Assembly (NCBI GenBank): GCA_965223855.1
Contig: CBDCXM010000009.1
Span: 2,304,001 to 2,368,000, forward strand
Origin: Candidatus Multivoradales bacterium
GTDB taxonomy: Bacteria; Acidobacteriota; Thermoanaerobaculia; Multivoradales; JAHEKO01
Length of the DNA stretch: 64,000 nucleotides
Direction of reading: 5' to 3'
Shown here piece by piece: positions 37,589 through 54,674 of this stretch. The stretch's first letter is position 1. Every line of letters starts with the position of its first letter. Made by a program: the position numbers and the translations under genes. Below the pieces are notes generated by a model. It saw only the letters and a program-made list of their open reading frames with translations, did no database searches and had not been told where the DNA came from.

Positions 37589-37597
37589 GTTTCGAGC

Positions 37598-38621: not shown

Positions 38622-38715
38622 TCCACTGACGTACCGCGGCTTGCACGAGTTCCTACTCTCCCTCGGTTTCCAGAGGCACACGGTCCCCGGCTTAGAGGTT
38701 CCACACGATTCCTGA
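38614..38715 (+). pseudogene. Truncated HicA-like ORF
   Basis: GTG overlapping the DUF4365 end gives MNDPLTYRGLHEFLLSLGFQRHTVPG then stops at 33 aa. Confidence 0.4.
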
Positions 38716-38923: not shown

Positions 38924-39826
38924 CTAAGCTTTCAGCGGGACGAAGCCTGCCCCGGGTCGGAAGCACCCGGCTGGGAACTCCGCAGCTCTTCCTCTTCTCA
39001 GGTCTTCGCTGGCCTGACGGTAGGCGAGGACGACGAGGGCGTAGGCTCCCTCGAGAGCTCTACGCATGCGGCCTTCGATCGCGTGGAAGCGCGGTGCCGG
39101 CGTGCGCTTGTCGGGCGAATTCGGCCGATCGTGAGGGTGCTGTCGGAGGATGGCGTCTCGACCGAGGACCTTGTCGGGAGCCTCCTCCTCGATCTGCTTG
39201 ACCATCCGGCGCACTTCCGCTCGCCAGTGGCTCTCTGGCTCGTGCTCCCAACAGGGCAGGGGCGAGAGCTCGAGGCGCTCTCTCGAGGCGAAGAGGGCGT
39301 CGGGGTTGGGTTCGCCTCTCTCGTGAGCCCGGTATTGCTCGGTTCGGTCGATCCAGACACCCTCGAGCGGATCGTCCTGGAGCAGGGCTTTCGTCGAGCT
39401 CGCTCCCGGCCAGTGCCTCGGTGAGGCGACCAGTCCTTCCTTGCAGCCCTGGGCCAGGAGGTAGCGGAGTCTCCCGATCTGCGCTGCGGGTTCGTCGGAC
39501 ACATGGATGTCGACGTAGCGCCGGCCGAAGATCTTCTCTTTCCAGTGGTGGAGCCTTCCGACTTCGCGGGCGATCTTGGAGTTGACGTAGCGCATGAAGT
39601 CGGCGAGCTGCCTGGCGTCTTCCGGGTAGAGCAGCATGTGGCAGTGGTTCGACAGGAAGACGAACGCGCACACTCGCATCCTGTAGCGCTCCTGGCCGCG
39701 GGCGAGGGCGCCGAGGATGATCTCGTTGAGCGCCGGCGAGGGGCGCAGCAGGAAGCGGCGCTGGAGGGTGCGGCAGGTGACTTCTACCAGGGCTTGTGAG
39801 GGCAGATAGCGAATCTTGCGTGCCAT
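38924..39826 (-). CDS. REP-associated tyrosine transposase (RAYT-like, Y1 HUH family)
   Basis: Start MARKIRYL; VEVTCRT, FVFLSNHCHMLL (HUH), FMRYVNS, IFGRRY, RYLLAQG.K.GLV..P..WPGASS; no TnpB adjacent. Confidence 0.88.
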   Translation of the reverse strand: MARKIRYLPSQALVEVTCRTLQRRFLLRPSPALNEIILGALARGQERYRMRVCAFVFLSNHCHMLLYPEDARQLADFMRYVNSKIAREVGRLHHWKEKIFGRRYVDIHVSDEPAAQIGRLRYLLAQGCKEGLVASPRHWPGASSTKALLQDDPLEGVWIDRTEQYRAHERGEPNPDALFASRERLELSPLPCWEHEPESHWRAEVRRMVKQIEEEAPDKVLGRDAILRQHPHDRPNSPDKRTPAPRFHAIEGRMRRALEGAYALVVLAYRQASEDLRRGRAAEFPAGCFRPGAGFVPLKA

Positions 39827-39896
39827 GCCCTTGCAGACGGAGGGCCTACGGGAGATCTCACGCATTTGTGTGGCACCCATCGAGGGGGCCCGCTCC

Positions 39897-40802
39897 TCAG
39901 TCGCCCAGCTCCAGTCGCTGCGCCTCGTCCCACAGGCGCGATCGGCGAAGCAGTTCCGGCCGAACGGCCGGCGGAAGCTGATCGTACTCGGGGATGCTCG
40001 CTCCGATCTCCTCTCGAGGGAAGAGGAGCACCCCATCGGCGAGCTCTCCTGCAAGGAATCTGTCCAGGCGCTTTCGACTCCAGACTTCGCCGAGCATTCG
40101 GTGGCCGGCCGTGCCTCCTGGAGTCACCAACATCCAGGACCCCAGCGCGTCGAAGGCCGGATGGTCCCGAAGGTGAGCCGCGACCGAGAGCACCGCCGCA
40201 CCTTCCGTACCTCGCTCGCGCCAGGACCTGGCGATGCGCTCGCAGTGGAGGTTGCCGAAGAGCCAGAGCTGCGGAAGAGGTGCTGCGGCGGCAAGTCTCT
40301 CCGCCTCCACGAGTTTCTCGCGCTGGAGCCAGGGGACGAGGTCCTCGGCGAGGTGTATCTGATCCCAGGGGATGGGGAGTGAGGCGCCTACGATCCGCAC
40401 CCTCGGCCTGGCACTCTCGCGATTGATCGACTGGGCCGCCCGCAGGAACTCCTCGTAGCCGGGGTGCTCCCAGGCGATTCCCAGGCCGGCGTCCCTCCAG
40501 ATCGGCCGGAGCTCGTCGCGCGACATCGGGGCTTGCTCGATCACAAAGCGATCGAGCAGGGCCTGGTGGGCCGGGGCTGCAAACTCCGCTAGGACCGTCA
40601 GCGACGGGAAGCGACTCGCAGCCGCGGATAGCACCTCGATGCGCAGTTGGCTCTCCTCCTCACCGCCGTGTTCCTCTCCAAGGCAGAGCCGGGGCGCGAG
40701 CTCCAGTACCAGGACTTCTGCAACGCTGATCCGCTGGTCGCAGCCGCTCAGTAGAAAGAGGGCCGTGGTGAGGGCGCTGATCAACGAGAGGTCCTTGTGC
40801 AT
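39897..40802 (-). CDS. Lipoprotein, EreA/ChaN-like fold
   Basis: Lipobox LSGC; LCLGEEHG and FGNLH motifs. Confidence 0.55.
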   Translation of the reverse strand: MHKDLSLISALTTALFLLSGCDQRISVAEVLVLELAPRLCLGEEHGGEEESQLRIEVLSAAASRFPSLTVLAEFAAPAHQALLDRFVIEQAPMSRDELRPIWRDAGLGIAWEHPGYEEFLRAAQSINRESARPRVRIVGASLPIPWDQIHLAEDLVPWLQREKLVEAERLAAAAPLPQLWLFGNLHCERIARSWRERGTEGAAVLSVAAHLRDHPAFDALGSWMLVTPGGTAGHRMLGEVWSRKRLDRFLAGELADGVLLFPREEIGASIPEYDQLPPAVRPELLRRSRLWDEAQRLELGD

Positions 40803-40883
40803 GGCGGTCGTCCCCCAGCATAGAGGCTAGCGATGCGGCCAAGGGGAGCACTTGAGCTGGGGTCGCCCGTCTCTCGAGTTGGC

Positions 40884-40965
40884 GAAATGCGGTGACAGGA
40901 TACTCATCACCGCCACATCACCGATCCTGCAGCGCCGGCGAATGAGTCACCTGTCACCGCTACTC
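40884..40965. repeat. REP-like inverted pair 1 (GGTGACAGG family)
   Basis: GAAATGCGGTGACAGGATACTC (40884-40905) and inverted GAGTCACCTGTCACCGCTACTC (40944-40965). Confidence 0.85.
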
Positions 40966-41065
40966 CCCGAGGACTGAGGCGCCCTGCGAATCGCGAGCAT
41001 CGCGACCAGCTGTAACGTCTCACGCCCGTCGGCCGCCTTCTCAGAAAAGAGGAAAGGAGCCCACG

Positions 41066-42796
41066 ATGCGCTTGTTCTGTGGATGGCTCGTGCTGTCATC
41101 ACTGCTGTCGACGCCCGTCATGGGGGGCGTGGCAGCGCCGCCTTCGGTGTGTGACGAGGTCCTGCACATACTCGTCGACGAGGAGGGTGCCGCCCGGATG
41201 CCGGATTACGTCGCCGCCGACCGAGGGGTTGTGAAGCAGGAGCCAGTGGCGGGCTACCTGCTGAAGGAGCCGTCGACGGCTCGCTTCGAGCTCGAGGACG
41301 GCACCTCCTGCGAGGTCGCGCTGGTTGCGGTGGATCGGTCGCGGCCGCGGGTTCGGATCGAGGTGGACCCGGGCCCCTACGAGGTCGGGTGGGTGCCGGA
41401 GGTCGCGATGGAGGTCTCCGACAACTCGGGGGAAGAGGGTCTTCAGACGGTGCTGCGTCTCGATGGAGAGGTGGTTGCGAGCTTCGACGATCCGGAGCTC
41501 TACATGGCAGGAACCCGGTGCCTGGAGGTCGAGGCGACGGACGCGGCCGGCAACGTGGGGTTCGCGGGCCGCTGCTTCGAGGTGCGTGACGACGAGATCG
41601 CCCGTCTCGGTGCGGATCTCGTCGGATTCGAGTGCGCCAGGGGGAGCGACGGGGTGGCGTTCGGGGTGCAGATGGCGATCGGCGCACCCGGCTTCGATGC
41701 GCTCGCCATCGAGCCCACCTCGTTGACGCTTCATGGGTACGCCAACGGTCAGTCGGTGACCAACGATCTCATTCAGATCCACGGGCTTTGGGACGATGGG
41801 TCCGAGTCCTACGGCACTACCTGCGGGGGGTACGTCGACTTCCGGGGGAGCGGTGGTCAGCTCGAGCGGTGCCCCGACGCCGTCGCGGTGCGCGGATTCC
41901 TGGTCGGCGGGGGGCAGTTCGTGGCCGTCTCGAATACTGGGCCGCAGGACCTGCGGCCCGGTGGGGGTGAGGCTGTCGGCAGAGAGCAGTGCGGTCCGCC
42001 GCGTGGGCTGGAGCCGCCGCCACGGGAGCGCGTCGACCCCTGTGATTGCACCTGGCAGAGCAACGTCGAGCGCGGCTACGACAGCGACAACGAGAGGATT
42101 CCGACTCGAGTGTGCCCCTCGGGATCGCAGTTCGCTTCGGCAAACGCCTGGTCTCTCTTCGGAACTGCCAACGGCTTTGCCAACGCCGGAGATGCCTGTC
42201 ACGGTGTGGCCAGGAGCAGCGTCGCGGTGATTGCGCAGAGCAGCGCCGAGCACTGGGTGACCTGCACGAAGGGGCGCTGCAGTGCCTCCGAGTGCTGCAA
42301 GCCCACTACACAGTGCGAGGCGAGGCCGTACTTCAAGGTCGACGGCGAGTTCATTCCGAACGCTCGGTGTGTCGCCGGCGCCAACATGAGGATCTCCGGC
42401 TGTGTCGAGGCCCAGGCCGTCGGCGCAGGCTATGCGTCCGGTGAGGACGTGAAGACCTACAGCATCGGAGGGCAGGCGGGCTCGCAGTCCGGCGTCAGTG
42501 CCTCGGTCGAGATCACTCCGGCGAACCTCTCCTCGACCGGTAACGCGCTCGTCTTCAACGACGACAAGTCGGCTTCGAACGGGGCCTGCTTCCAGCGGCT
42601 GAGCTCGAGCACGGCGATCAATCTGTCGTCGTACGCCGACAATCGGATCCTCTCGGTCTTTGGAGTCGTCGATGATGCCTACTGCCGCATCAAGCTCGAG
42701 GACTCGAAGGTCGGCGCGCGGGCAAGGTCGTGGTGCACCGACGGGTCGACCGCGCACACGTCGCCGATTTCGGCTTACGTCACGACCATCCCCTGA
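41066..42796 (+). CDS. Secreted cysteine-rich protein with an Ig-like segment
   Basis: AAGGAG RBS, signal peptide, VEATDAAGN Ig-like motif, Cys-rich beta-rich C-terminal half. Confidence 0.7.
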   Translation: MRLFCGWLVLSSLLSTPVMGGVAAPPSVCDEVLHILVDEEGAARMPDYVAADRGVVKQEPVAGYLLKEPSTARFELEDGTSCEVALVAVDRSRPRVRIEVDPGPYEVGWVPEVAMEVSDNSGEEGLQTVLRLDGEVVASFDDPELYMAGTRCLEVEATDAAGNVGFAGRCFEVRDDEIARLGADLVGFECARGSDGVAFGVQMAIGAPGFDALAIEPTSLTLHGYANGQSVTNDLIQIHGLWDDGSESYGTTCGGYVDFRGSGGQLERCPDAVAVRGFLVGGGQFVAVSNTGPQDLRPGGGEAVGREQCGPPRGLEPPPRERVDPCDCTWQSNVERGYDSDNERIPTRVCPSGSQFASANAWSLFGTANGFANAGDACHGVARSSVAVIAQSSAEHWVTCTKGRCSASECCKPTTQCEARPYFKVDGEFIPNARCVAGANMRISGCVEAQAVGAGYASGEDVKTYSIGGQAGSQSGVSASVEITPANLSSTGNALVFNDDKSASNGACFQRLSSSTAINLSSYADNRILSVFGVVDDAYCRIKLEDSKVGARARSWCTDGSTAHTSPISAYVTTIP

Positions 42797-42797
42797 T

Positions 42798-42861
42798 CGG
42801 TGAGGAGTTAGGGGGCACCGCCTCTCCGAGTGGCGATTTGAGTATCCTGTCACCGGGAAGC
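42798..42861. repeat. REP-like element 2 (intact inverted arm, decayed forward arm)
   Basis: GAGTATCCTGTCACCGGGAAGC (42840-42861) is the reverse complement of the motif; decayed CGGTGAGGAGT at 42798. Confidence 0.75.
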
Positions 42862-42868
42862 TGAGGAG

Positions 42869-43900
42869 ATGTCGGGAGGGATCTACATCCCAGCGTGGCT
42901 GGTCGCCGTGATCGTGCTCGCCGGGCTGGCGATCGTGGCTCTCGGCATCGTCGTCGCGCTGCTGGTGTGGTTCTTCGCCGCGCGTGAGGAGCGGATCCAC
43001 CGGTTCGAGCTCGATGCCGCTGACGGGCTGGTCGACCTTGGACCGATCCCGGTGACACTCGGGCCTCGAGACCCGGTCGGTGATGCCACCCGATACTTCC
43101 TCGCGAAGCGCGGGATGCCGGTGTTCGTGGTCCCCTTCGCCGACTACCTGAGGATCGGCTTCAAGGGTAGCGAGGCCGCTCGCGGGCGAATCGACGAGAA
43201 GCAGTTCGTCACGATCTCGCCGGTGTCCTGGTCGCTGGATCTGGCGCGCCGCCTCCAGTTCGAGAAGGTCAGTCCGGAGTCCGGCGTCGTGCCTTCCGGC
43301 ACGTTGACCGACTATGCGTCGATTCCCTCGCCGTTGCGCTGGTTGGTCGGGCAGCCGACCGGCCTGGTGGCTCGCGCGGCGATCGTGCACGACTTCGGCT
43401 ATCGCAGCGACGCCGCTGCCGAGCGTTCGACCGCGCGTCGCCGCGACTGGGACCGCACGATGCTCAAGCTGATGCGCCAGGACGGGGTCAGCCCCGCCCG
43501 CCGGATCCTCATCTATTGGGGGGTGCGGCTCGGGGGCGGCAGAGCCTATCGGGCCGGGTCGGATCGGCTTGGCGACACGGAGTATCAGGAGCTGCTCGAG
43601 TCCGTGGCGTCGCGGACAGAGGACTTTCTTCGCGAGCTGCCCGGGCTGTTCGATCTCGAAGGCCTGGCCGCGCTCGAGAAGGGCGATCTGAAGCCACGGC
43701 CGCAGAGGGTTGTCGTTGGATACAGGCCCCGACCGGGCTTCGAAAGGGTGATCGAGATGCAGGACGAACTGACCTATGGGACCCGTCATCCGACTGACGA
43801 GGACAGGCAAGCCAAGGCGGAGGAGCTCCGCGGCGGCCCGATGAAGCGGCTCTGGACCGCTACCGGGGCGCGGGTCGTGCGGGCGCTGCGCGGGTACTGA
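42869..43900 (+). CDS. DUF1353 domain membrane-anchored protein
   Basis: N-terminal TM; TDYASIP, AAIVHDFGY, DRTMLKLMRQDGV...IYWGVRLGG. Confidence 0.8.
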   Translation: MSGGIYIPAWLVAVIVLAGLAIVALGIVVALLVWFFAAREERIHRFELDAADGLVDLGPIPVTLGPRDPVGDATRYFLAKRGMPVFVVPFADYLRIGFKGSEAARGRIDEKQFVTISPVSWSLDLARRLQFEKVSPESGVVPSGTLTDYASIPSPLRWLVGQPTGLVARAAIVHDFGYRSDAAAERSTARRRDWDRTMLKLMRQDGVSPARRILIYWGVRLGGGRAYRAGSDRLGDTEYQELLESVASRTEDFLRELPGLFDLEGLAALEKGDLKPRPQRVVVGYRPRPGFERVIEMQDELTYGTRHPTDEDRQAKAEELRGGPMKRLWTATGARVVRALRGY

Positions 43901-43924
43901 AGTCCTTCTCTGCGCCACGATTCG

Positions 43925-43980
43925 GAAGAGTGGTGACAGGCCACTCATCGGCCGCCGAGTCCGTAACCGGCCTGTCACGG
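43925..43980. repeat. REP-like inverted pair 3
   Basis: GAAGAGTGGTGACAGGCCACTC (43925-43946) and partly decayed inverted GGCCTGTCACGG (43969-43980). Confidence 0.75.
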
Positions 43981-44032
43981 CCTCCTTCCTACCCTCCACT
44001 CACAACGCCGAAGTGGAGTGGAGGAGCACGCC

Positions 44033-45541
44033 ATGAACCCGACGCCCAGGATCGCACTTGTCGCAGTCAGCCTAGCCTTCGTTCTCGAGGCCGCTGCCGC
44101 GGCGCAACCCCAGATCACGAACCTCAACGCAACTTCGCTCCCGCGAAGCGGACGTCTCGCCATCACCGGCAGCGGCTTCGGGACGGACGGTCAGGTGCTG
44201 GTGGGCGGGCTTCCGGCCTGGGTTTCGACCTGGCTGCCCGGGCGGATCGTCGCCTACGTGCCCGAAGCGCTCGACGTCGGCGACGCGCTCGTCGTCGTCG
44301 AAGTGGACAGCCAGCAGAGCAACTCGATGACGCTCGACGTCACGACCCGGGAGAGCGACGGGCGCCTGCGCTGGACCTTCGAGATCGACTCGGAGTCGCT
44401 CTACTACCGGCCCGCCGAGGCGCCGGACGGGACGCTCTACGTTCACGGCCGGAGCCTCGAAGGGGGCGGCACCGGTCGGGTCTATGCGATCGCGCCGGAC
44501 GGCGCTCTCAAGTGGATCGTTGATGTCGATTCCCACGCCGGAGCGCCACCCGCGGCCGGCCCCGACAACGAGGTCTACGTCGGCACGTTCAGCAAGCTCT
44601 ACCGGATCTCCTCCGCCGGGGACATCGACTGGGTGTTCCAGGGAGATGTCATCCGATCGGGAGCCGCCGTCTCTCCGGAGGGGGTGGTGTACGCCGGGTT
44701 CGAGCATCCGCCCGAGGCCGTCGCCCTCGACGCCGTCACCGGCGATGTGATCTGGACGCTCTCACCCGGTCTCAGCGCCTTCGGCACCGGCGGGAACGAG
44801 ACCCGACTCGGCCGGACCGCGCCGGGCGGCCCCATCGACCGGATCTACTTCTGGTGGGACGCGCTGGCCGCCTTCAGCACTGACGGCGACCATCTGTTCA
44901 CGACTGCCGCCGGCAATATCTACGACCACGAAGTGGGCATCGGCTCGGACGGCACGCTCTACTCGCCGGCGAACTTCGAGAGCGACCTGGTGGCGCTGAG
45001 CCCTTGGAACGGCAGCGTCATGTGGCTCGCGGACAGTCCGTGGCTGGCCGGTACCTCGGACGTCGAGGTCGGGCCGGACGACACGCTCTACTTCGTCAGC
45101 GACGGGCGCTGGATCGACGCGTTCGATCCGGATACCCAGAGCACCATCTGGCGCCACGACATGTTTCACTGGCTGCGCCGGCCGTCGCTGAGCCCGGACG
45201 GGAGCCTCCTGCTGGCCGCCGGTGGAGGCGGTTGCTCCGCCCAGCAGGGCTGCGTCGCCGCCTTCGTCAAGGCGTTCGAGACCGAGGGTGGCTCAGAGCT
45301 CTGGCAGCTGGACTTCGACGAGTGGGATCCGACCTGCTTCAGCATCCCGTGGGACCACGCCCGAGTGTCGGCCGACAGTCAGACCGCACACCTCATCGCC
45401 ATGGTCGGGGGCACCTGCGATCAGAACGACCAGCGGAGCCTCGTCTGGTCGGTCGACCTGGCCGACCCGCTCGGGCCGGACGTGTTCAGCGACGGGTTCG
45501 AGAGTGGGGACACCTCGGCCTGGTCGCAGACCGTGCAGTAG
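44033..45541 (+). CDS. Secreted IPT/TIG + PQQ-like beta-propeller protein with C-terminal FxDGFESGDTSAWS motif
   Basis: Signal peptide; ITGSGFG IPT domain; repeated DGTLY / DGALKW blades. Confidence 0.82.
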   Translation: MNPTPRIALVAVSLAFVLEAAAAAQPQITNLNATSLPRSGRLAITGSGFGTDGQVLVGGLPAWVSTWLPGRIVAYVPEALDVGDALVVVEVDSQQSNSMTLDVTTRESDGRLRWTFEIDSESLYYRPAEAPDGTLYVHGRSLEGGGTGRVYAIAPDGALKWIVDVDSHAGAPPAAGPDNEVYVGTFSKLYRISSAGDIDWVFQGDVIRSGAAVSPEGVVYAGFEHPPEAVALDAVTGDVIWTLSPGLSAFGTGGNETRLGRTAPGGPIDRIYFWWDALAAFSTDGDHLFTTAAGNIYDHEVGIGSDGTLYSPANFESDLVALSPWNGSVMWLADSPWLAGTSDVEVGPDDTLYFVSDGRWIDAFDPDTQSTIWRHDMFHWLRRPSLSPDGSLLLAAGGGGCSAQQGCVAAFVKAFETEGGSELWQLDFDEWDPTCFSIPWDHARVSADSQTAHLIAMVGGTCDQNDQRSLVWSVDLADPLGPDVFSDGFESGDTSAWSQTVQ

Positions 45542-45551
45542 GTCTCGGAAT

Positions 45552-45579
45552 CGGGGTGCTCCTCTAGAGATGCACCCCG
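45552..45579. terminator. Hairpin between convergent genes
   Basis: cggggtgc-12 nt-gcaccccg. Confidence 0.4.
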
Positions 45580-45612
45580 GAGGTGCGACGCGAAACCTGA
45601 GAAGGCCGGCTC

Positions 45613-46908
45613 TCAGCCCAGCCCGCTTTGCAGTACCCCGTGCATCGCCTCGACAAACCGATCGACCTCATCCAACGTCGAGTACACGCTAGGCGACACC
45701 CGAATCCCCTCGAACTCGTCATGCTCGATGCCGACGGTGAAGATGCGGTGACGCTCCCATAGGAAGTCGGCGAGAGCCTTCGTGTCAACGCCTTCGACCT
45801 GCACGGTGGCGATCCCGCAGGCGAACCCCGGTTCGAGACTGGTATGCAGCCGGACGCGGTCGTGCGTGAGGAGTTCCCTGGCCCACCGATCCCGCAGGTA
45901 GATCATCCGCTGCTCCTTGGCTTTGGCGCCGAGGCCGCGATGGAAGGCGAGCGCCTCGGCAATCGCCAGATAGTTGGCGGCGGGGTGGGTGCCAATTTCC
46001 TCGAACTTGCGGATGTCGGCTTCCATCTTCTCGGGCGCCGCGGTCAGCGGCCAGAGGTCGGCGATGCGGTCCTTGCGCACGTAGAGCATGCCGGTGCCGT
46101 GCGGGGCGAAGAGCCACTTGTGAAGGCTCGTCGCGTAGTAGTCGCAGTCGAGGTCGGCGTGGTCGAAGTCGAAGTGGGCGAACGCGTGCGCGCCGTCGAC
46201 GATCACCGGGATGTCGCGCTCCCTGGCCATGGCGACGACCTCTTTCACCGGCAGGATCTGGCCGGTGAGGTTGATCATGTGGCACATCAGGATGAGCCGG
46301 GTGCGCTCGGTGATGTGCGCCTCGAAGAGCCTCACGATCTCGGCCGGGTCCTCGGCCGGGATGGGAATCTTGAACTGGCGCAGGACGATCCCCTCGCGTC
46401 GTTCGCGCTGCTTGAAGGTGGTCACCATGCGGCCGTAGTCCTGGGTGGTGGTCAGCACTTCGTCGCCCGCCTCGAGGTCGAAGCCGAGCTGGCAGATCTG
46501 GAGGCCCTCGGAGGCGTTGCGGGTGAGCGCGATCTCTTCGGCGTCGCAGCCGAAGGCGCGCGCCAGGCTCGCGCGCACCGGCTCTCGCTGCGGCTCGAGG
46601 ATGCGCCACATCGTGTAGGGCGGCGCGGTGTTGGAGTAGTCGAGGTGGCGCTTCATCGCCTCTTGCACCACCGCCGGAGACGGGCTGACGCCGCCGTTGT
46701 TGAAGTTGATGATCGAGCGGTCGACGGTGAACGCCTGCTGTGCCTCGAACCAGAAGGACTCGTCGCGGGCGAGGTCGGCAGGGTGCTCGCTCGCGCCGGC
46801 GAGATCGTTGAGCACGGCATGGGCGCGCTCGGGGTCGAGGGTGGCTGCGGCGGCTGCCGCACCGACGGGCGCTGCGATACGAGTCAGGAAGCTTCGGCGA
46901 TCGAGCAT
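45613..46908 (-). CDS. Class V PLP-dependent aminotransferase (isopenicillin N epimerase-like) with Tat signal
   Basis: DRRSFL twin-arginine motif; NFNNGG, RNASEGL, VDGAHA, SLHKWLFAPHGTG. Confidence 0.88.
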   Translation of the reverse strand: MLDRRSFLTRIAAPVGAAAAAATLDPERAHAVLNDLAGASEHPADLARDESFWFEAQQAFTVDRSIINFNNGGVSPSPAVVQEAMKRHLDYSNTAPPYTMWRILEPQREPVRASLARAFGCDAEEIALTRNASEGLQICQLGFDLEAGDEVLTTTQDYGRMVTTFKQRERREGIVLRQFKIPIPAEDPAEIVRLFEAHITERTRLILMCHMINLTGQILPVKEVVAMARERDIPVIVDGAHAFAHFDFDHADLDCDYYATSLHKWLFAPHGTGMLYVRKDRIADLWPLTAAPEKMEADIRKFEEIGTHPAANYLAIAEALAFHRGLGAKAKEQRMIYLRDRWARELLTHDRVRLHTSLEPGFACGIATVQVEGVDTKALADFLWERHRIFTVGIEHDEFEGIRVSPSVYSTLDEVDRFVEAMHGVLQSGLG

Positions 46909-46996
46909 GGGCTCCTCCTCGGGGGTGACGGGGTGAGGAGGATTGTACGGCAGGCCTCTGGGGCCAGGTGCTGCAGAGTAGTGGCGCGCGAATGAT

Positions 46997-47536
46997 CTAG
47001 GTGCAAGGTCCGAGAAATGCGATCAACGAACCAGCGACACCTTCCCGTCGCAGGCATTGGGGATAAGCGGACTCGCCGAACTCGTCGAACGCTTCAGGGC
47101 AGGGCACAACAAAGAGCGGGGGGAGATCCGGTTGCTGCGACTCCGAGAGGCGGCCGTCTGGCGACACCCAGATGGCCTCGTCGGCCATGGAGCTCGGAGA
47201 GAGGATCAACTGCTCGCCGCTGATACCGAGAGGGTGAGTGTCAATGGGCACGGGCCAGCTGCGAACGACTCGCCCAGCCTCGTCGATCTGATAAGCCCAT
47301 TCGTGCTCCAGCCAGTCGAGACCGAGGGGAACGGCCGGAACCGACAGGGTGATCGTGGCTCCACAAGGATGGTCGGGGTGGGCCTCGACCTCCGGAGGAG
47401 GCTGGGACTCGCCCGCCCAGAAGGTCACTGTCACCACTTCCGGCTCCACCACCTCCGGCTCCGGCGACGTGCAACCGAGAAGGGCGAGGGCCAGCAGACA
47501 AGGACCCGGCGAGCTCCGGAACGCCTCCAGTTTCAA
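46997..47536 (-). CDS. Hypothetical lipoprotein
   Basis: Lipobox LLGC; start overlaps the DUF4199 stop. Confidence 0.6.
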   Translation of the reverse strand: MKLEAFRSSPGPCLLALALLGCTSPEPEVVEPEVVTVTFWAGESQPPPEVEAHPDHPCGATITLSVPAVPLGLDWLEHEWAYQIDEAGRVVRSWPVPIDTHPLGISGEQLILSPSSMADEAIWVSPDGRLSESQQPDLPPLFVVPCPEAFDEFGESAYPQCLRREGVAGSLIAFLGPCT

Positions 47537-48063
47537 GCCGTCCTGGCCGGCAGGAACCTGCTATTCCGCAGCAGCGCCGCCGAGATCAGCGAGACCACCA
47601 GCCCGAACGGGATAATCTCGAGAGAGGTCATGAAGACTCGCATCAGTGGGTTGGCGGTGCGCTCCTTCATCGTCTCCATCTGCGTCACGATCGCCTCGAG
47701 CTCCGCACCAGTGACCCCCGCGGCCTCCTGGCTCTCGATGTAGCTCGCCACGAAGTCGTCGATGAAGGTGTAGCCGGTCGAGGCGAGGAAGATCTCCCAG
47801 ACGACGACGTAGGCGACGCCTGCCATCAGGCTCATCCACAGCCCCACCACGAACGCCTGGCCGAAGCGGATCACTCCGCCCAGCTCACTGTCGCGGTAGC
47901 GCTTGATCCCGAAGAAGAGGATGCTGAGGACGACCAGCATGATGAGGAAGCCCCAAGCGCCGCTGACGTGCCCTTCGCGGATCGCGAGCAGCGACCCGAG
48001 GATGAAGACGGCGGCGCACAGCGCTCCTGTGATGGCGCCGAAGACGAGGATGATTCTCTGCAT
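47533..48063 (-). CDS. DUF4199 family membrane protein
   Basis: 4 TMs; FFGIKRYRDSELGGVIRFGQAF and EIIPFGLVVSLISAALLR. Confidence 0.85.
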   Translation of the reverse strand: MQRIILVFGAITGALCAAVFILGSLLAIREGHVSGAWGFLIMLVVLSILFFGIKRYRDSELGGVIRFGQAFVVGLWMSLMAGVAYVVVWEIFLASTGYTFIDDFVASYIESQEAAGVTGAELEAIVTQMETMKERTANPLMRVFMTSLEIIPFGLVVSLISAALLRNSRFLPARTA

Positions 48064-48114
48064 GTCCTACCTCCTTTTCTGGAGCGGATTGTAGGGACGG
48101 AGGCGACCCTGTAC

Positions 48115-48158
48115 ATCGCCCGAACGGGTGATTTCGGGAAACTCGCCCGTTTGGACCA
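48115..48158. promoter_or_regulatory. Candidate LuxR operator (palindrome plus a second degenerate site)
   Basis: ATCGCCCG-AA-CGGGTGAT (48115-48132) and CTCGCCCGTTTGGACCA (48142-48158) between luxR and DUF4199. Confidence 0.55.
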
Positions 48159-48164
48159 AGGCTC

Positions 48165-48584
48165 TCAGGGCAGGATCTGCAGCAAACGCGCCTTCTGCAC
48201 GGCCTGAGTCCGCCTGGAGACGTCGAGCTTGCCGTAGAGATGCCCGACGTGAGTCTTGACCGTGTGCGGCGAGACGTGGAGCAGTTCGGCGATCTCCTTG
48301 TTCGAGTGCCCGCCCGCCAGGAGCTCGAGCACCTCGAGTTGTCGATCGCTGATGCCGAGCGACTGGATCGCCTCCTGGTTGAGCTCGAAGTTGCCGGCCG
48401 ATCGGCGAGGCGTGAGCCGGAAGCCGATCCAGACGCCGAGGGCGGTGAAGCCGACGGCGAGGATCGTGATGTAGGCCTCGGTCGACAGCGCGCGGATGAG
48501 GTGGCGGTACTCGAGCCAGCGTAGGGCCAGAGCCGCCAGGACCAGTGTCGCGGCGTAGGCGATGAGGATGCGGGCCTTGCTCAC
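48165..48584 (-). CDS. Membrane-anchored LuxR-type regulator
   Basis: Two TMs then ISDRQLEVLELLAGGHSNKEIAELLHVSPHTVKTH. Confidence 0.9.
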   Translation of the reverse strand: MSKARILIAYAATLVLAALALRWLEYRHLIRALSTEAYITILAVGFTALGVWIGFRLTPRRSAGNFELNQEAIQSLGISDRQLEVLELLAGGHSNKEIAELLHVSPHTVKTHVGHLYGKLDVSRRTQAVQKARLLQILP

Positions 48585-48635
48585 AACGTGCCGTCGATTC
48601 TATCGATGGCCCCGGTCCAGGCTCCGGTGCGGGGC

Positions 48636-49646
48636 CTACTGAGCCGGCTCGACCGGGGGCTCGATGCCCAACGATGGATGGTAGAGCGAGAGCACCTCGC
48701 GCATCCGCCGCCGCTGGCGGCGCGTGAACTCTTCGAGACAGGCGTCGTCGCTGTAGTCCATGAAGTTGGTCACCGGGTCGGGCTCATCGTCTTCCAGGCA
48801 GGTGTCGCGGCCGATCGGGCAGCCGTAGGCGGGCTCGGCCTCCGGGGGAGTGTCGAAAACCTCGTCTCCCGGTGCTTCACAGCCGCCTTCGAACGTGTGG
48901 AAGAGGCCCAAGGCGTGGCCGATCTCGTGGACGGCGGTGTGCCCGAGGTCGAAGGGAGCCGCCCGACCGCCGGGGAGGGTCCGGTAGTCGAGGACGATGC
49001 CGTAGAGCGGGCTGTCCTCCGGGTACCACCACGGGTACATGGCGTAGCCGAGCGTACCGCCGTCGGGGTTGCAGGTGTAGACGTTGAGAGTGGTCGTGGG
49101 ATCGACGGCCAGGCGCTCGGTCATGCGGACGAACTTCGGTTTCAGCGCTCCGTTGCGCTTGAACGCGTAGCAGCGGTGAAACCAGTGGGGGCGATCGGTT
49201 CGATCAATGCCGGCCAGGGTGAACTGGATGCGCGAGTTGCGGAACGACCGGTTGAGGATGGCGACCTGCTCCTCGATCGCGGCGTCCGAGACGAAGCCGC
49301 GCCCTGCTGCATGGACGACGTGAAACGCCAGGGGAACGATGCGCCGCTGGTGCCGGGGGCCTGGCGCCAGCGCTCGGGCGAGCTCGAGGCTCTCGTCGAC
49401 GAGCCGGCGGAGCTCCGGCGTGCCCTGAGGTGTGGCGCATCGACGTGCCGGCCTGACGAGGCCGGGGCTCACCTCGACCGAGACGTCGGGCGGACCGAAG
49501 ACGGTGCTGCTCTCGAGCCAGTCGCGATGCCAGCCGTCTGACGGCGGATTGGCCCCCTCGTCGGCGACGGTGGGAGCGGCTGCCAGACAGAGCGACAGCG
49601 CTACCAGAAACCGGAGGGATCCGGCGGGGCGGGAACGGGGTTGCAT
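48636..49646 (-). CDS. Secreted M43 (pappalysin/ulilysin-like) zinc metalloprotease
   Basis: HEIGHALGLFHTF, DTPPE and NFMDYSDD Met-turn motifs. Confidence 0.9.
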   Translation of the reverse strand: MQPRSRPAGSLRFLVALSLCLAAAPTVADEGANPPSDGWHRDWLESSTVFGPPDVSVEVSPGLVRPARRCATPQGTPELRRLVDESLELARALAPGPRHQRRIVPLAFHVVHAAGRGFVSDAAIEEQVAILNRSFRNSRIQFTLAGIDRTDRPHWFHRCYAFKRNGALKPKFVRMTERLAVDPTTTLNVYTCNPDGGTLGYAMYPWWYPEDSPLYGIVLDYRTLPGGRAAPFDLGHTAVHEIGHALGLFHTFEGGCEAPGDEVFDTPPEAEPAYGCPIGRDTCLEDDEPDPVTNFMDYSDDACLEEFTRRQRRRMREVLSLYHPSLGIEPPVEPAQ

Positions 49647-49689
49647 CGGGTGCGCCCGAGGGCGCTCGGTCGGGTCAGTCCACGCCGGA

Positions 49690-50331
49690 TCAGTCGACGC
49701 CGAACTCGGTCAGCTCCACCGGGATCTCGCAGGTCAGGCCGAGGTCGAAGGGGCCCACCGCGCCGTTGAATCCCTGGACCAGAACCAGGTACTCCTGACC
49801 GTCGGCGCTGACCCAGGTCACGGTCGATCCGCGGTTGAGGGTCGAGCCGGTCGACGAGATGACGCAGTCCGGATGGGGATTGGTGCCGTCCGGGCTGCCG
49901 TCGTCGTTGCCACCGATGCAGTCGTCGTCCAGGGCGCCGCAGTCGGAGGTGAAGACGTTGAGCTTGGTGTCGTAGTCGGTGTTGCCGCCGGTGTCGACCG
50001 AGAAGCAGGTGGTGACCTGCATCTCGCCGCCGTTCCCCTGGATGGAGTACCAGACTCCGGGGGCGGTGATCGAGGTTCCGCAGGTGGGGGGCGCCGGCAC
50101 CTCGTCGGTCGCCGCCGAAGTGCTTCCGGTGAGGATGTCGCCACAGCCGAGCGTGATCGGCGCCGAGCAGTCGTCGTTGGCGGGCGGACCGAGTTGCAGG
50201 ATCTCGCGGACGGGGCGGGTCCTTTCGGTGACGCCTCCGAGTTTGATTTCGTCCTGCGCAGTCGCGGCTGCTGCGAACGCGGCGATCAGAAGAGTCGCCA
50301 ACGCCAGATGCCGAAGATGGATGGTCTTCAT
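49690..50331 (-). CDS. Secreted protein with PANDDC motif and C-terminal IPVELTEFGVD
   Basis: Start MKTIHLRH, signal peptide; PANDDCS, GVWY, YDTKL, YLVLVQGF (PPC-like beta sandwich). Confidence 0.72.
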   Translation of the reverse strand: MKTIHLRHLALATLLIAAFAAAATAQDEIKLGGVTERTRPVREILQLGPPANDDCSAPITLGCGDILTGSTSAATDEVPAPPTCGTSITAPGVWYSIQGNGGEMQVTTCFSVDTGGNTDYDTKLNVFTSDCGALDDDCIGGNDDGSPDGTNPHPDCVISSTGSTLNRGSTVTWVSADGQEYLVLVQGFNGAVGPFDLGLTCEIPVELTEFGVD

Positions 50332-50633
50332 GCTGTCTCCCCTCGAAGCGAGTCGTTGGGTCTGATGGGCGGGATGTGAAGGGAATTTATCATGCGCTCG
50401 AGTGCGCGCTCCCGGCTCGGCACTCCCCTGCGACGTGTGAAGCACGACAAGCGACCCGCGTCGTTGTTTTGCCTCGACATTGGTAGGAATCATGAGACTG
50501 ATTTGACGTTGCTGCCTGGACGAGGTCGGGACGTGCGGTTGGCGGTGTGGCTCAGGCCCGGGCCCCGGAACCGACAGCGGTCCTGGTTGCGGTCCACAAA
50601 CCTCCTGGGAGATCAGAGGCCGATACCCGAGGC

Positions 50634-52442
50634 TCAGTCGCCGTGGTCGCCGCCAGGCCGCGGCATCGGGAGCAAGCCGTCGGGAGCGCCGAGAGTGTCC
50701 TCGGGCACTTCCGGTGCCGCACCCACCCTGCGGAACTCACCCCGCACCAGGCCCTGACTCGGGTTACGGATGGTGAGCGTGTCGTCCTGGCAGGTGTAGT
50801 CGAACGTCATGTTGCGTTCCTGCCCTTCCGCCACGAGGTCTTTGTCGGTGTCGAGCGGGCCCGACCCGCCTCGTCCGGCGGAGGAGGTTCGGGTCATCTT
50901 TCCGCGGGAGACGTCGCGCTCCTCGCAGACGTAGAGCTTGCCGTCACCGGTGCCCCAGAAGCCGAGTCCGGCGTTGACGGAGTAGCTCGTCACGGTTCGT
51001 ACCCACTGGTCGCCTTCGCGCTCGATCATGTCCATGTGGAACGGCTGGTCCGAGCGGAATCCGCGGTTGTCGAAGAAGGTCCAGACCGGCGGCGGCTGAT
51101 CGACGGCGAGGAGCTCGACGCTGGCGGCCATCGCGTGGTCGGGTGCCACGAAGTTGACGTCCTGCCAGCGGCCGAGCAGGCACGGATCCAGACCGTCGGG
51201 CAGGTGGTCGCAACTCCGGATGCAGGAGTCACCGGCCTTCTCGAACCGCACTTTGAGTGGCACTTCGTCGGGGTCGATCCCGTAACCGACGAGGACGAAC
51301 GGCTCCGTCTCGCCGCACACCGTCTCGAGCGTCAGCGGCCCGTCGAGCGGGATCCACAGGCCGTCCGGGTCGCCGTTCTCGAGCACCCCGGAGACGAAGC
51401 CGTCGCCCCCCTCGGGAAGCGTCAGCCGCCACTGGCCGGGCCCCAGCACGAAGCCGGAGCGGGCGAGGCGGCCGAACTTGCGGACGAAGGACTCTTCTTT
51501 GTCCTCGCGGATGTGGGTTGTCGGCCGCGAGTCGCGCCGGCTGGGAAGCACACGCCGGCCGTCGGGCAGGCGGATGTGGAAGGCCGAGTAGCGGGTCGCG
51601 AAGTCGAGCCAGTCCTGATCCTCGAGCGTGTCGAGGATGGAGGCGACCGAGTCCCCGTGGCCGTCGAGGCGGCGCAGGTAATCCATCGTGGCCCGGGCTC
51701 CGTAGGCCTCGGCATGCCAGGCGAAGACCGGCCATGCCCCGTAATCCATCTTGCGGATGTCGAGGTGCCGGTGGCGGAACTCGAACCACAACAGCCAGTT
51801 GTGCGCAGCGTTCCCTTCGTCCAACGGCACGTTCGGAATGGCCGAGAAGGCGAACCAGTTGGCACCGCCTTCCAGATACCAGGAGAGCGGGTCGTCGTCC
51901 TCTCCGGTGGCGTCCTCCCAGTAGGCGGTGCCGAAGGTCTGGTCCTGAATGCAGTGGAAGAGCTCGTGGGCCACGATGCGCGACAGTTCGATCGACCCGC
52001 GCCCGTGCCCGTGAGGCGAGATCGCGATGTAGCACCGGTTGTTCCTGACGTCCGATTCGCCATTGGTGGTGGAACTGGCGCCCGACTGGTCGGTCAGCAC
52101 CACCCGCACGTGGCGGCCGACACTCACGTCGGAGCCCAGCTCGGCGGCGAACGTCACCGCTCGATGCAGGGCGTCGTGCACTGCCTGCGCCTGCTCGTCG
52201 CTGACCTCCACCCCCTGTTCGTAGAGGTCGTAGGCGAGCGCCTGCAACGTTCCCCCGGAGCCCGTGACCGGGTTCGGCAGCGGGGCGTTGTCGATCACCG
52301 AGTAGCAGTCGCCACCGAACGTCCGCCCCCACAGCGACGGATCGTCGTCGGGCAGGAACAGCTCAGGCGCGCAGGTGCCCCGAGCCGACGCGCTGCCGGC
52401 CACCAGGGCCAGGGTCATGAGGAGGGTTGCTGTCTTCGTCAT
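50634..52442 (-). CDS. Secreted HExxH metallopeptidase-like protein
   Basis: Start MTKTATLL, signal peptide; VAHELFHCIQ...WYLEGGANW gluzincin-like pattern. Confidence 0.68.
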   Translation of the reverse strand: MTKTATLLMTLALVAGSASARGTCAPELFLPDDDPSLWGRTFGGDCYSVIDNAPLPNPVTGSGGTLQALAYDLYEQGVEVSDEQAQAVHDALHRAVTFAAELGSDVSVGRHVRVVLTDQSGASSTTNGESDVRNNRCYIAISPHGHGRGSIELSRIVAHELFHCIQDQTFGTAYWEDATGEDDDPLSWYLEGGANWFAFSAIPNVPLDEGNAAHNWLLWFEFRHRHLDIRKMDYGAWPVFAWHAEAYGARATMDYLRRLDGHGDSVASILDTLEDQDWLDFATRYSAFHIRLPDGRRVLPSRRDSRPTTHIREDKEESFVRKFGRLARSGFVLGPGQWRLTLPEGGDGFVSGVLENGDPDGLWIPLDGPLTLETVCGETEPFVLVGYGIDPDEVPLKVRFEKAGDSCIRSCDHLPDGLDPCLLGRWQDVNFVAPDHAMAASVELLAVDQPPPVWTFFDNRGFRSDQPFHMDMIEREGDQWVRTVTSYSVNAGLGFWGTGDGKLYVCEERDVSRGKMTRTSSAGRGGSGPLDTDKDLVAEGQERNMTFDYTCQDDTLTIRNPSQGLVRGEFRRVGAAPEVPEDTLGAPDGLLPMPRPGGDHGD

Positions 52443-52471
52443 TGGGGGGAGGCTTGCCTCAGCCGTGAGCC

Positions 52472-53164
52472 TCACGGAATCCGCTCCGGCGCGGCTCGCA
52501 GCAGCGAGATCCCGAAGATGGAGAACCAGAGCATGTGGAGAGGTCCGGCTCCCATCGAGGTGATCCCCAGGATCGGGACCAGACCCTGGAACATCTGCGT
52601 GACCGCGAAGACGCCGCACAGCATCCCCAGCCAGCAGACCCATCGCGGGACGATGCCGTGGCGCAGTGCGACCCAGGCCATCATGGCGCTGCCACAGGCG
52701 ACCACCAGAGCCGGCCCGACGAAGGCGGAGAGCGCCAGGTACTGGACCTGGAAGATGTCGACCACGGCCAGCACGCTCGGCTGTAGGGGATCCTGCTTCA
52801 GCGAAAGCCACCACATCAGGCCGACTTGCGTCGCGAAGCCCGCCACGGCGACCGGAATACCCACCGAATAGCCGAGCAGGGAGAGGGCACGGCGCCAGTC
52901 GTCTTCGAACCGTCGGTGGAAGAGGCAGCGGGCGCAGCCGAGCATACAGACGAAGCCGGCCACGAGGCTGCTCATCGCCAGCCTCCACCCGACCGGATGC
53001 ACGCGGACCGCCTCGATCCAGGCGGACGAGTCGCCGCCCCGAAGTGTGTCGACGGCGAACGCATGGCCCTGAGCCGAGCCGACGAACGCGTAGGTGAGCA
53101 CGAGCGGGCCGACGAGCGATCCGAAGACGCCGGCCCAACGGACGGACGCGATCTCCTTGTTCAT
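52472..53164 (-). CDS. DUF4386-like membrane protein
   Basis: About 6 TMs, IVPRWVCWLG; GGAGG RBS. Confidence 0.55.
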   Translation of the reverse strand: MNKEIASVRWAGVFGSLVGPLVLTYAFVGSAQGHAFAVDTLRGGDSSAWIEAVRVHPVGWRLAMSSLVAGFVCMLGCARCLFHRRFEDDWRRALSLLGYSVGIPVAVAGFATQVGLMWWLSLKQDPLQPSVLAVVDIFQVQYLALSAFVGPALVVACGSAMMAWVALRHGIVPRWVCWLGMLCGVFAVTQMFQGLVPILGITSMGAGPLHMLWFSIFGISLLRAAPERIP

Positions 53165-53259
53165 GGCAACCTCCGTCGGGAGCCTACAGGACGGGACTGG
53201 TCGTGTTCGCGCGGCAGGCCCCGCCGCTTTGGGCTACGGAAGGGGGATGCGTTGAGGAC

Positions 53260-53709
53260 ATGACGAGTCTTGGGCCAAGGCCGGTGGCACGGAGGTATGG
53301 CGCTGCGGTGTTCATCGGCTCTCCGGGAGCGATCGCGAGCCTAGCGCTGCCGTCTCGTCTGCGGGTTCCGGAAGCTCTCTACTTCGACTTGCTGCTCGTC
53401 CTTGCGGTCGTCGTGCTGGCCGTCAACGGACTCCATGGCTGGCTACTCGCGTGCATTCGAGACAGGGCTCCGGATACCTGGAATGTGCTCGGCCGGCCAA
53501 GTCCGTGGCCGTTCCCGAGGAGTGGGTTGGGCGGTTGGGCTCCGTCGGTGCTTCGAGCTGTCAAGCGCCCCGAGCTGGTGAAGTCGCTGGAGAAAAAGGA
53601 CGCCGGCTTCCGATGGATCTTCACCACGCTTCGCTGTCTGAGCGGGCTGGGCAAGGTTCTCTTTGCGTTGCTCCTGCTCGCCTTTGTCTTCATCGAAAGG
53701 GCACCCTGA
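53260..53709 (+). CDS. Hypothetical membrane protein (start uncertain)
   Basis: 2-3 hydrophobic segments, PDTWNVLGRP; GAGGA RBS before ATG 53260. Confidence 0.45.
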   Translation: MTSLGPRPVARRYGAAVFIGSPGAIASLALPSRLRVPEALYFDLLLVLAVVVLAVNGLHGWLLACIRDRAPDTWNVLGRPSPWPFPRSGLGGWAPSVLRAVKRPELVKSLEKKDAGFRWIFTTLRCLSGLGKVLFALLLLAFVFIERAP

Positions 53710-53811
53710 CGTCCGATCCTCGTCCGAGACGCGAACCGGGGGCTCCAACCAGACATGCCGCGCGGAAGGTGAGCCGGGACTCTCTCCCTGAGCCGGCCTT
53801 CCGACTGGAAC

Positions 53812-54459
53812 TCAGTCGGCCAGGAGCCGTGCGCGGAGCTCCGAGAGCCTTTCGGCGGCGGAGAAGTTCTCTGCCAGCAGGTACTCGGAGACGAGCCAGT
53901 CGAGCCGGTGGGCGAGGGCGGCATCCAGAGGAAGCATCCCCTGCTCGAGCAGCAGGTAGGGGTGCTCGCCGAGCTTTCGGGCCTGGTCGGCTCTGCCCTG
54001 GCTCTCGTACAGGTGCTGCAGCCGAGCGACGTAGATCGCGACGGAAGACGGCTTGCCGGAAATCCCCGGGGTGGCAGCTGAGCCCGGGCCTCGTGAGAGG
54101 AGCATCTCTACGACGGCCAGCGACTGCATCGACTCCGCGCGCTCGTGGTCGCCGTCGAGGTAGGCGACCAGGCCGAGTTCGTCCAGCGTTTCGGCGAACC
54201 GCCAGTCTCTGGCTCCGAAGGCTCTTGCAAGGAGCGCACCGGCGCAGAACTCGAGATGGGCAGCGTCGAGGTCGCCCGTTCGGATCGCTTCGATTCCCGC
54301 GAGGTAGTGGCGGTTCCAGGCGGCATCGGTCGACCCTTCCTGGCCCTCCGACGACTCGAGGACGAACTGTCCGTCTCGCCGGCAGGTCTCCGGGACCCAT
54401 CGTTCGAGGGGAGCTCGGTCGCTTTCGTTCTTCCCGCTCTCGGCGGGCATTGCGGCCAT
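53812..54459 (-). CDS. TPR-like helical repeat protein
   Basis: FGARDWRFAETLDELGLVAYLDGDHERAE and LYESQGRADQA resemble kinesin-light-chain-type TPRs. Confidence 0.55.
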   Translation of the reverse strand: MAAMPAESGKNESDRAPLERWVPETCRRDGQFVLESSEGQEGSTDAAWNRHYLAGIEAIRTGDLDAAHLEFCAGALLARAFGARDWRFAETLDELGLVAYLDGDHERAESMQSLAVVEMLLSRGPGSAATPGISGKPSSVAIYVARLQHLYESQGRADQARKLGEHPYLLLEQGMLPLDAALAHRLDWLVSEYLLAENFSAAERLSELRARLLAD

Positions 54460-54475
54460 CGGGGAGGGAGCGAAA

Positions 54476-54674
54476 GGAGTTTCGGTGACAGGATACTTTT
54501 CTTTGCGACGAGGAGTTTCGGTGACAGGATACTTTTCTTTGCGACGGGGAGTTTCGGTGACAGGATACTCTTCTTTGCGACGGCTCTTCTCTTCGCCCCG
54601 TTGCCTCGTCGCGTCTCAGGGCGACGGACCGAGTGGAGTGGAAGGGGAGTTAAGTAACCTGTCACCGAAACTCC
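54476..54674. repeat. REP-like element 4: three tandem 36-bp units plus one inverted arm
   Basis: GGAGTTTCGGTGACAGGATACTYTTCTTTGCGACGR at 54476, 54512 and 54548; inverted AAGTAACCTGTCACCGAAACTCC at 54652-54674 (22/23 match). Confidence 0.92.

Follow-up and report, generated by a model that had tools for sequence, protein, structure and literature searches.

A REP/REPIN-like repeat family and its probable RAYT in the genome of a Candidatus Multivoradales bacterium

Repetitive extragenic palindromic (REP) elements, short repeats that lie outside genes, owe their copying or movement as single-stranded DNA to a dedicated HUH tyrosine enzyme encoded by a single-copy gene, the REP-associated tyrosine transposase (RAYT), and work on REPs and RAYTs has been centred on Proteobacteria. 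In this study we consider a repeat with the core CGGTGACAGG in a stretch of 64,000 nucleotides (hereafter the window, positions 1-64,000) from a Candidatus Multivoradales bacterium, a member of the Acidobacteriota. The window corresponds to G000:C9:2304001-2368000, G000 being the host genome (a 4.52-Mb assembly of 9 contigs, among them C8 and C9). A preliminary description of the same DNA had noticed the repeat in the vicinity of a Y1 HUH gene and had regarded it as a possible REP-like substrate of that RAYT-like enzyme. Our results indicate that the motif is very probably a REP family, with inverted doublets of the REPIN type (REP doublets forming hairpins) and with a RAYT of its own, a protein of 219 amino acids (aa) encoded 1.85 Mb from the window; that the Y1 gene in the window probably represents a separate RAYT-like system; and that the copies in the window are probably passive. 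The earlier characterization as a REP-like RAYT substrate thus holds insofar as the repeat is extragenic, forms hairpins as doublets and brackets a RAYT gene, but this is not the RAYT of the window.

Known REP/REPIN-RAYT systems ("REPtrons") include Escherichia coli TnpA-REP with its REP sequences and bacterial interspersed mosaic elements (BIMEs), and the REPINs of Pseudomonas fluorescens (PMC3116915, PMC3337134, PMC5581495, PMC6006769). The present system resembles these in its single-copy HUH/Y1 gene with a Y---NP signature, which is enclosed by inverted extragenic repeats, and in its scattered repeat, of which inverted doublets form hairpins and of which the flavour varies with the enzyme lineage. 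It differs from them in that the unit is non-palindromic and has no GT[AG]G foot, only ~30 copies are present, direct arrays are capped by an inverted unit, the host is an acidobacterium and the enzyme scores under the NCBIfam cut-off. The weakly structured flanking repeats are a property shared with the atypical REPtrons of Quentin et al. In that paper (Quentin et al., 2018; PMC6006769), class 3 REPtrons are reported mainly from Planctomycetes, Acidobacteria and Proteobacteria, a single genome having several related genes. The 19-paralogue family to which the Y1 gene of the window belongs is reminiscent of this class, and its Y motif RYLLAQ reads Y---Q, whereas class 3 is described there with Y----Q and a CnGA foot, neither of which was found here. 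With IS200/IS605 elements the system has in common the Y1 HUH fold family (Pfam PF01797) and subterminal structured ends. Unlike in those elements, however, the 219-aa gene occurs only once, there are far more repeats than genes, and the 19 paralogues of the window gene are 56-82% identical instead of near-identical recent copies.

The repeat family in the window and in the genome

The exact core occurs seven times in the window (40890+, 40950-, 42846-, 54483+, 54519+, 54555+ and 54658-) and is accompanied by two cores with one mismatch (43931+ and 43971-). Allowing at most one mismatch, the window contains 16 core matches versus 7.3 +/- 2.4 in dinucleotide shuffles, and 16 matches were reached in none of 100 shuffles, which confirms that the sites listed in the preliminary description are present above chance. 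No exact core was found in the window beyond 40.9-54.7 kb. The first 28 kb contain 3 one-mismatch matches, which is the chance level. When the window was scanned with a position weight matrix (PWM) at a threshold of at least 12 bits, the copy at 43924 was the sole match in addition to the strong copies. The copies are:

40883..40909, + strand: REP copy A1, PWM 34.8 bits, exact core at 40890; left arm of a REPIN-like inverted doublet
40940..40966, - strand: REP copy A2, PWM 30.4 bits, exact core at 40950; right arm of the doublet with A1
42836..42862, - strand: REP copy B, PWM 26.0 bits, exact core at 42846; singleton, ending 7 bp before the ATG at 42869
43924..43950, + strand: decayed REP copy C1, 13.7 bits with the relaxed PWM, core TGGTGACAGG with one mismatch
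43965..43991, - strand: decayed REP copy C2, inverted partner of C1, core CCGTGACAGG (43971-43980) with one mismatch, <12 bits
54476..54583, + strand: tandem array of 3 REP units (54476, 54512 and 54548), period 36 bp, PWM 49.0, 49.0 and 47.9 bits
54648..54674, - strand: REP copy D4, PWM 47.7 bits; forms an inverted pair with the third tandem unit

Tandem Repeats Finder (TRF) resolved 54476-54583 into 3.0 copies with 97% matches and a score of 202. The inverted pairing noticed previously is evident for 40883/40940, 43924/43965 and 54548/54648 but not for copy B at 42836, for which no partner was detected by folding or by the relaxed PWM scan; the decayed arm that had been placed at 42798 scored <12 bits in the PWM scan, and the region 42790-42868 was unfolded (z +0.77). 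As had been observed before, all copies in the window are intergenic and lie shortly upstream of four + strand genes (at 41066, 42869, 44033 and 54726), before which the nearest copy ends at 100, 7, ~43 and 52 bp, respectively. Judged by eye, the proteins encoded by these genes have N-termini like those of signal peptides or membrane anchors. The Y1 gene is separated from the first copy by 1,057 bp, matching the minimum distance of 1.06 kb given earlier. An Rfam search of positions 38000-56000 gave 0 families at the gathering score. Two 215-aa open reading frames (ORFs) beside copies (window 53812-54459 and L011:5945-6592) were considered as paralogues and rejected (BLASTP E = 14).

Genome-wide, the exact core is present 43 times versus ~19 times expected from base composition, and 27 of these 43 cores share common long flanks, resulting in a 27-nt non-palindromic consensus, GGAGTTYCGGTGACAGGWTACYYATCT. 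A PWM threshold of at least 14 bits yielded 30 matches in the genome versus 0 in the reversed-genome control, and the relaxed PWM yielded 33 versus 3. The intergenic bias for which the preliminary description had proposed a genome-wide scan was borne out: all 28 copies of at least 25 bits are intergenic, even though ~78% of the genome was called coding by a rough ORF filter based on GC3, which overlooked the RAYT gene and placed a spurious 81-aa ORF at its position. The chance of an all-intergenic placement is ~2e-19 when each copy is treated alone and 5e-8 when 11 groups, counted by eye, are used. The strong copies (at least 25 bits) group into 8 clusters:

C8, 466.6 kb: 3 copies
C8, 510-514 kb: 2 copies
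C9, 448-455 kb: 5 copies
C9, 519.6 kb: 1 copy
C9, 1706 kb: 6 copies, between the 3' ends of convergent MFS and phosphoenolpyruvate (PEP) carboxylase genes
C9, the window: 7 copies
C9, 2546.7 kb: 3 copies
C9, 2761 kb: 1 copy

The genes beside the copies are functionally unrelated and encode leucyl-tRNA synthetase (LeuRS), PEP carboxylase, DnaE (the alpha subunit of DNA polymerase III), MgtE, CorC/CNNM, VIT1, MatE, an MFS transporter, an SDR, endonuclease III and an FG-GAP/LamG protein. The copies themselves are arranged as singletons, as inverted doublets or as direct arrays of up to five units that are capped by one inverted unit. The 5' word of the unit is GGAG, and only 2 of the 28 copies have GTAG, so that the unit departs from the canonical GT[AG]G foot.

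The motif had been described as a 22-bp imperfect palindrome, but the consensus is a non-palindromic word, and the folding of single units does not exceed that of shuffles (z +0.28, -0.55 and -0.67). Inverted doublets, on the other hand, do form hairpins, with a minimum free energy of -20.8 kcal/mol for A1/A2 (z -2.3), -15.2 kcal/mol for C1/C2 (z -2.0) and -34.6 kcal/mol for 54548-54574/D4 (z -4.9), while a fourth inverted doublet reached -32.3 kcal/mol (z -7.2). In every adjacent inverted pair the (+) unit precedes the (-) unit, and the pair around the 219-aa RAYT gene is alike. Arms of 4 bp (GAGT/ACTC) are not general: by our own count, 6 of the 30 copies in the list have ACTC at the respective place. 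In one congener (G003) the REP doublets are spaced 57 bp. Because only the inverted doublets fold, and their order is always (+) then (-), the elements behave like REPINs whose unit is non-palindromic.

The 219-aa RAYT and the Y1 gene of the window

A genome search with the NCBIfam model REP_Tyr_transpos (NF047646) gave 24 matches, none of them above the cut-off of 80 bits. The best match (C9:452717-453121, 69.9 bits) is located inside the motif cluster at 448-455 kb and falls in the following gene:

G000:C9:452705-453364 (= L013:11705-12364): cognate RAYT candidate of 219 aa, HUH motif PNHVHLL, Y motif RYVLMNPVRAGLV, 1.85 Mb from the window

This protein possesses both the HUH motif and the class-2 catalytic tyrosine signature, Y---NP, as Quentin et al. 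(2018, PMC6006769) state it for REPtron enzymes. It aligned to E. coli TnpA-REP (PDB 4ER8) across the HUH and Y motifs with an E value of 7e-5, passes the Pfam Y1_Tnp cut-off (35.5 versus 23 bits) and is single-copy in the host genome (one match at E <= 1e-10). One motif copy, (+), precedes its ATG by 68 bp, and another, (-), extends across its stop codon; inverted repeats enclosing the RAYT gene are the REPtron layout described by Quentin et al. and by Bertels et al.

The pairing of enzyme and motif extends beyond this genome. RAYT orthologues with 56-64% identity are present in five other genomes of the family or order. For four of the five, the best flanking inverted repeat contains GGTGACAG or GGGGACAG and is positioned 38-114 bp before the ATG and shortly past the gene, while the gene of the fifth, G008, is flanked by another inverted pair of 42 nt that includes GGGGACAC. 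A wider scan of named genomes produced 56 RAYT loci, of which 41 with enough flank were analysed and 15 were dropped for short flanks or partial matches. Inverted pairs identical at 20 or more positions flank the gene at 33 of the 41 loci, and 21 of the 41 have GGTGACAG, with at most one mismatch; G[GT]GACA was read by eye from the printed pairs in 29 of the 33 cases. The hosts of these loci are labelled as Acidobacteriota (Thermoanaerobaculia), Gamma- and Alphaproteobacteria, Planctomycetota, Omnitrophota and others, and the closest ones are metagenome-assembled genomes of Thermoanaerobaculia/Acidobacteriota. The RAYTs of one clade share 40-73% identity with the 219-aa protein, and the inverted repeats at their flanks have the core G[GT]GACAG. 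True hairpins are formed by the unit of some lineages of this clade (GGGGACAG...CTGTCCCC); the unit of the host genome is without the second arm.

The Y1 gene of the window is associated with another motif:

38924..39826, - strand: Y1/HUH RAYT-like gene, 300 aa, likely start MARKIRYL, motifs NHCHML and RYLLAQGCKEGLV
39864..39877, - strand: the gene's own upstream motif GGTGCCACACAAAT, exact match, 37 bp before the ATG
38697..38710, + strand: inverted degenerate copy of the Y1 motif, GGTTCCACACGATT, two mismatches, 214 bp past the Y1 stop codon

The RAYT-like Y1 HUH gene of the preliminary description is indeed present, but it remains below both curated cut-offs (NF047646, 51.9 versus 80 bits; Pfam Y1_Tnp, 22.8 versus 23 bits), and a PDB sequence search with its protein gave 0 matches at E <= 1. 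Its database homologues number >1,200, and the JGI name is often "REP element-mobilizing transposase RayT." In the 4.5-Mb genome it is one of 19 full-length paralogues with 56-82% identity, to which fragments have to be added; examples are located at C9:3179184, C8:737563, C9:1592435, C9:92911 and C9:1069707-1078503. Nineteen co-resident REPtron-like units form an unusually large set. For 15 of the 19 paralogues a GGTG[CT]C-N4-[GA]AAT word is present within 150 bp upstream, in the gene's orientation and for the most part at a distance of 37-55 bp to the start; the background rate of such words is 0.08 per kb per strand. Nine of the 19 have a one-mismatch inverted word within 450 bp downstream, a count that does not include the two-mismatch copy of the window. 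Arrays of GGTGCC-type words also occur elsewhere, e.g., eight (+) copies at C9:1978285-1978685. The nearest copy of the CGGTGACAGG family is >90 kb away or absent from the contig for 17 of the 19 paralogues, the only ones near a copy being the window gene (1,057 bp) and C9:525715 (6.1 kb). The proposed pairing of the motif with the enzyme of the window is thus contradicted by the different flanking motif of the Y1 gene (GGTGCC-N4-RAAT) and by the position of the cognate RAYT at 1.85 Mb, and the expected co-occurrence of the motif with the clade of the window gene fails for those 17 paralogues.

By analogy with the studied systems, it would be the 219-aa RAYT, and not the Y1 enzyme of the window, that binds and cuts the motif and thereby seeds new copies. 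The copies in the window would then be passive insertions, of which the first three sites (A, B and C) are presumably old and decayed, and the Y1 gene may constitute a second RAYT-like system with its own GGTGCC-N4-RAAT repeats. One could also envisage that the 300-aa Y1 protein or its paralogues act on the REP as well, the two motif families being related, which would explain the local concentration of copies. The short distances at the window gene and at C9:525715 point in this direction, as does the resemblance, by eye, of one paralogue flavour, GGTGTCACAGGAATAC, to GGTGACAGGATAC. Such cross-mobilisation is nevertheless very unlikely considering that for the great majority of the paralogues the closest copy is >90 kb off or the contig has none, that each retains its own flavour of the word 37-124 bp upstream, and that 5 copies are found in 7 kb around the 219-aa RAYT, which fits local seeding by that enzyme.

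Several observations weigh against the assignment to a REP/REPIN family with the 219-aa RAYT. A single unit has neither a hairpin nor the canonical GT[AG]G foot, the enzyme is under the NCBIfam equivalog cut-off (69.9 versus 80 bits), and ~30 copies is low for a classical REP family; for the REP-associated RAYT groups 2 and 3, Bertels (2017; PMC5581495) reports flanking-16mer counts with means of 57 and 140. Scatter alone does not account for seven strong and two decayed copies in a 14-kb part of the window, and none of 30 relatives yielded the two genes that the first three sites enclose. Among these relatives, a 17-mer of the G000 flavour has 1-4 matches in 8 of the 30, of which only 3 (G003, G007 and G008) have a RAYT orthologue with at least 50% identity; conversely, the 17-mer occurs in only 3 of the 6 relatives with an orthologue of at least 50%, the other three (G012, G014 and G026) being without it. 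In these three the RAYT-flanking repeats are of another flavour. The co-occurrence test with the 17-mer is too flavour-specific to decide, and the analyses of the flanks were used in its place. The local density of the copies and their placement around the two orphan genes are two features that the REP reading does not explain.

Gene neighbourhoods of the copies and the cassette idea

The position of the copies in the window, 7-100 bp before start codons and in a constant orientation relative to the gene, together with the conservation of the 14-nt core across genera, could suggest a transcription-factor operator or an alternative-sigma promoter element of an envelope-gene regulon. Six copies, however, are placed where the 3' ends of two convergent genes face each other, units are also found in tandem arrays of 3-6, the neighbouring genes are functionally unrelated, the motif is absent upstream of leuS in four congeners, and the inverted motif brackets the RAYT gene in many phyla, which would be unexpected for a regulon motif. 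We consider this explanation highly improbable. Promoter readings made by eye only (sigma-70 with a -35-like GTGACA and a -10-like TAWCCT, and sigma-54) were dropped because of the arrays between convergent genes and the flanking of the RAYT.

The leuS locus allows a direct comparison of gene order with and without repeats. In the host genome, three strong copies and a truncated fourth one (C8:466715, 15.5 bits) are located in the spacer that separates leuS from a conserved 946-aa gene. Both genes are retained by four congeners (78-84% DNA identity), and no copy within two mismatches of the 14-mer was found at this locus in any of the four. The gap between the genes is 197 bp in G004 versus 861 bp in the host genome. 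Among congeners the corresponding spacer (G000 L011:5948-6802) spans 197 bp (G004) to ~2.8 kb (G002), and G002 retains ~500 bp of the host's spacer, 68% identical and without the repeats. Since the four congeners have both genes without the repeats, the repeats at this locus were gained or lost without a change in the flanking genes.

In the preliminary description it was proposed that the sites are comparable to integron attC sites and that the neighbouring Y1 enzyme captures or shuffles single-gene cassettes. Three successive intergenic regions of the window do carry sites ahead of co-oriented genes, a search of 30 relatives revealed neither the gene at 41066-42796 nor that at 42869-43900, one weak domain match for the second being the sole exception, and in congener G003 a doublet-gene-doublet-gene layout precedes secreted FG-GAP and beta-propeller genes. 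Structured sites between co-oriented single genes, as in this one stretch of the window, are also a feature of integron attC/IntI arrays. Unlike in such arrays, the sites are not confined to an array and are found beside core genes, there is no adjacent cognate recombinase or attI-like site, and variation at the level of cassettes was not seen at the leuS locus of the congeners or in the contigs of one study. Most copies occur elsewhere, in 8 clusters, beside genes such as those for LeuRS, PEP carboxylase and DnaE, or between convergent genes, and the leuS neighbourhood is kept without the repeats. The adjoining Y1 gene has a different motif, 17 of its 19 paralogues have no sites nearby, and the cognate RAYT is 1.85 Mb off. 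Furthermore, the three supposed cassette sites are the most decayed of the genome (34.8, 30.4, 26.0, 13.7 and <12 bits, whereas 22 of the 25 other strong copies have 35-51 bits), while sites in active use are expected to be conserved. The cassette explanation is, therefore, unsupported, since the copies are scattered beside core genes and six of them lie between convergent genes, and we regard it as extremely improbable.

Publicly available contigs provide a further view of these sites. We used Logan contigs from 4 runs of one study, three of which are from one sample, with a depth of ~3-7. They span 38967-41670, 42253-45993 and 42599-46072 colinearly, and the colinearity across the sites in the three runs of one sample also speaks against cassette shuffling. 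None of the joints listed (15 of 29) ended in the motif, although contigs cannot show absence; the short sides of these joints measure 20-26 nt, and joints of this kind often derive from other organisms or repeats. One contig (run X1, record 6) is without 54475-54510, i.e., one 36-bp unit, and other contigs break at the array. The missing unit may represent a copy-number variant or an assembly collapse.

According to the preliminary description, genome-wide scatter of the motif without a link to variable genes would argue against the cassettes. This is largely the situation encountered here, except that locally two orphan genes are bracketed by sites; the link with variable genes is favoured locally but not genome-wide. 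Since these two genes were not found in 30 relatives, the stretch 41066-43900 is to be regarded as accessory DNA. Of the genes at this locus, only the gene at 44018-45541 (57-59% aa identity) and the aminotransferase gene (72-83%) have orthologues in congeners, and on the contigs examined these orthologues neither adjoin one another nor have other genes of the window as neighbours. When 28 flank positions are compared with the G000 consensus and the G003 flavour, the matches number 18 and 18 for A1, 15 and 19 for A2, and 14 and 14 for B, whereas all 25 other strong copies have flanks closer to the G000 consensus than to the G003 flavour. As the decayed sites resemble the flavour of a congener and bracket two orphan genes, these features could be read as footprints of gene acquisition via REP sequences. 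We deem this very unlikely; if true, it would imply REP-REP or RAYT-mediated joining of foreign or relative-derived DNA, and REP doublets would be occasional capture sites of accessory genes.

Surrounding genes and implications

The GC content of the window is mostly 0.66-0.71 and decreases to 0.58-0.63 at 30-38 kb. The low-GC stretch (30000-38700), perhaps an island of acquired or defence type, adjoins the Y1 gene and includes genes for a ResIII/DEAD helicase-like protein of 1087 aa (33647-36910) and for a DUF4365 protein (38079-38621). The proteins encoded at 44018-45541 and 54726-56054 share a C-terminal tag, F[SA]DGFESGDTS[AG]WS (DNA at 45485-45541 and 56000-56054). The DNA encoding the tag has dozens of short matches across four congeners, and the tag is also present in two G003 genes behind REP doublets. 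It is probably a lineage-specific sorting signal. At G003:C5:12001-28009 (L040), REP doublets occur near a TIR-domain gene, a gene for a LodA-like lysine oxidase with its flavoprotein partner, and secreted FG-GAP/propeller genes. Two ORFs overlap on opposite strands in 50547-53138 of the window (50547-52871, +, 774 aa; 50634-53138, -, 834 aa). A weak match, with the MXAN_6640 HExxH metalloprotease family, was obtained for the (-) ORF alone.

The present analysis removes a false lead, as there is no evidence here for an HUH-driven counterpart of integrons, and describes instead a clear REP/RAYT pair in an acidobacterial genome. A full-text literature search returned little on REP/RAYT in Acidobacteria and did not find the motif strings. 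The non-palindromic unit, with a core G[GT]GACAG that is tied to one RAYT clade across phyla, offers a data set on the co-evolution of enzyme and site. Furthermore, the occurrence in one genome of the 219-aa RAYT together with 19 diverged RAYT-like paralogues with their own flavours makes this bacterium a possible test bed for the separation of substrates between such enzymes.

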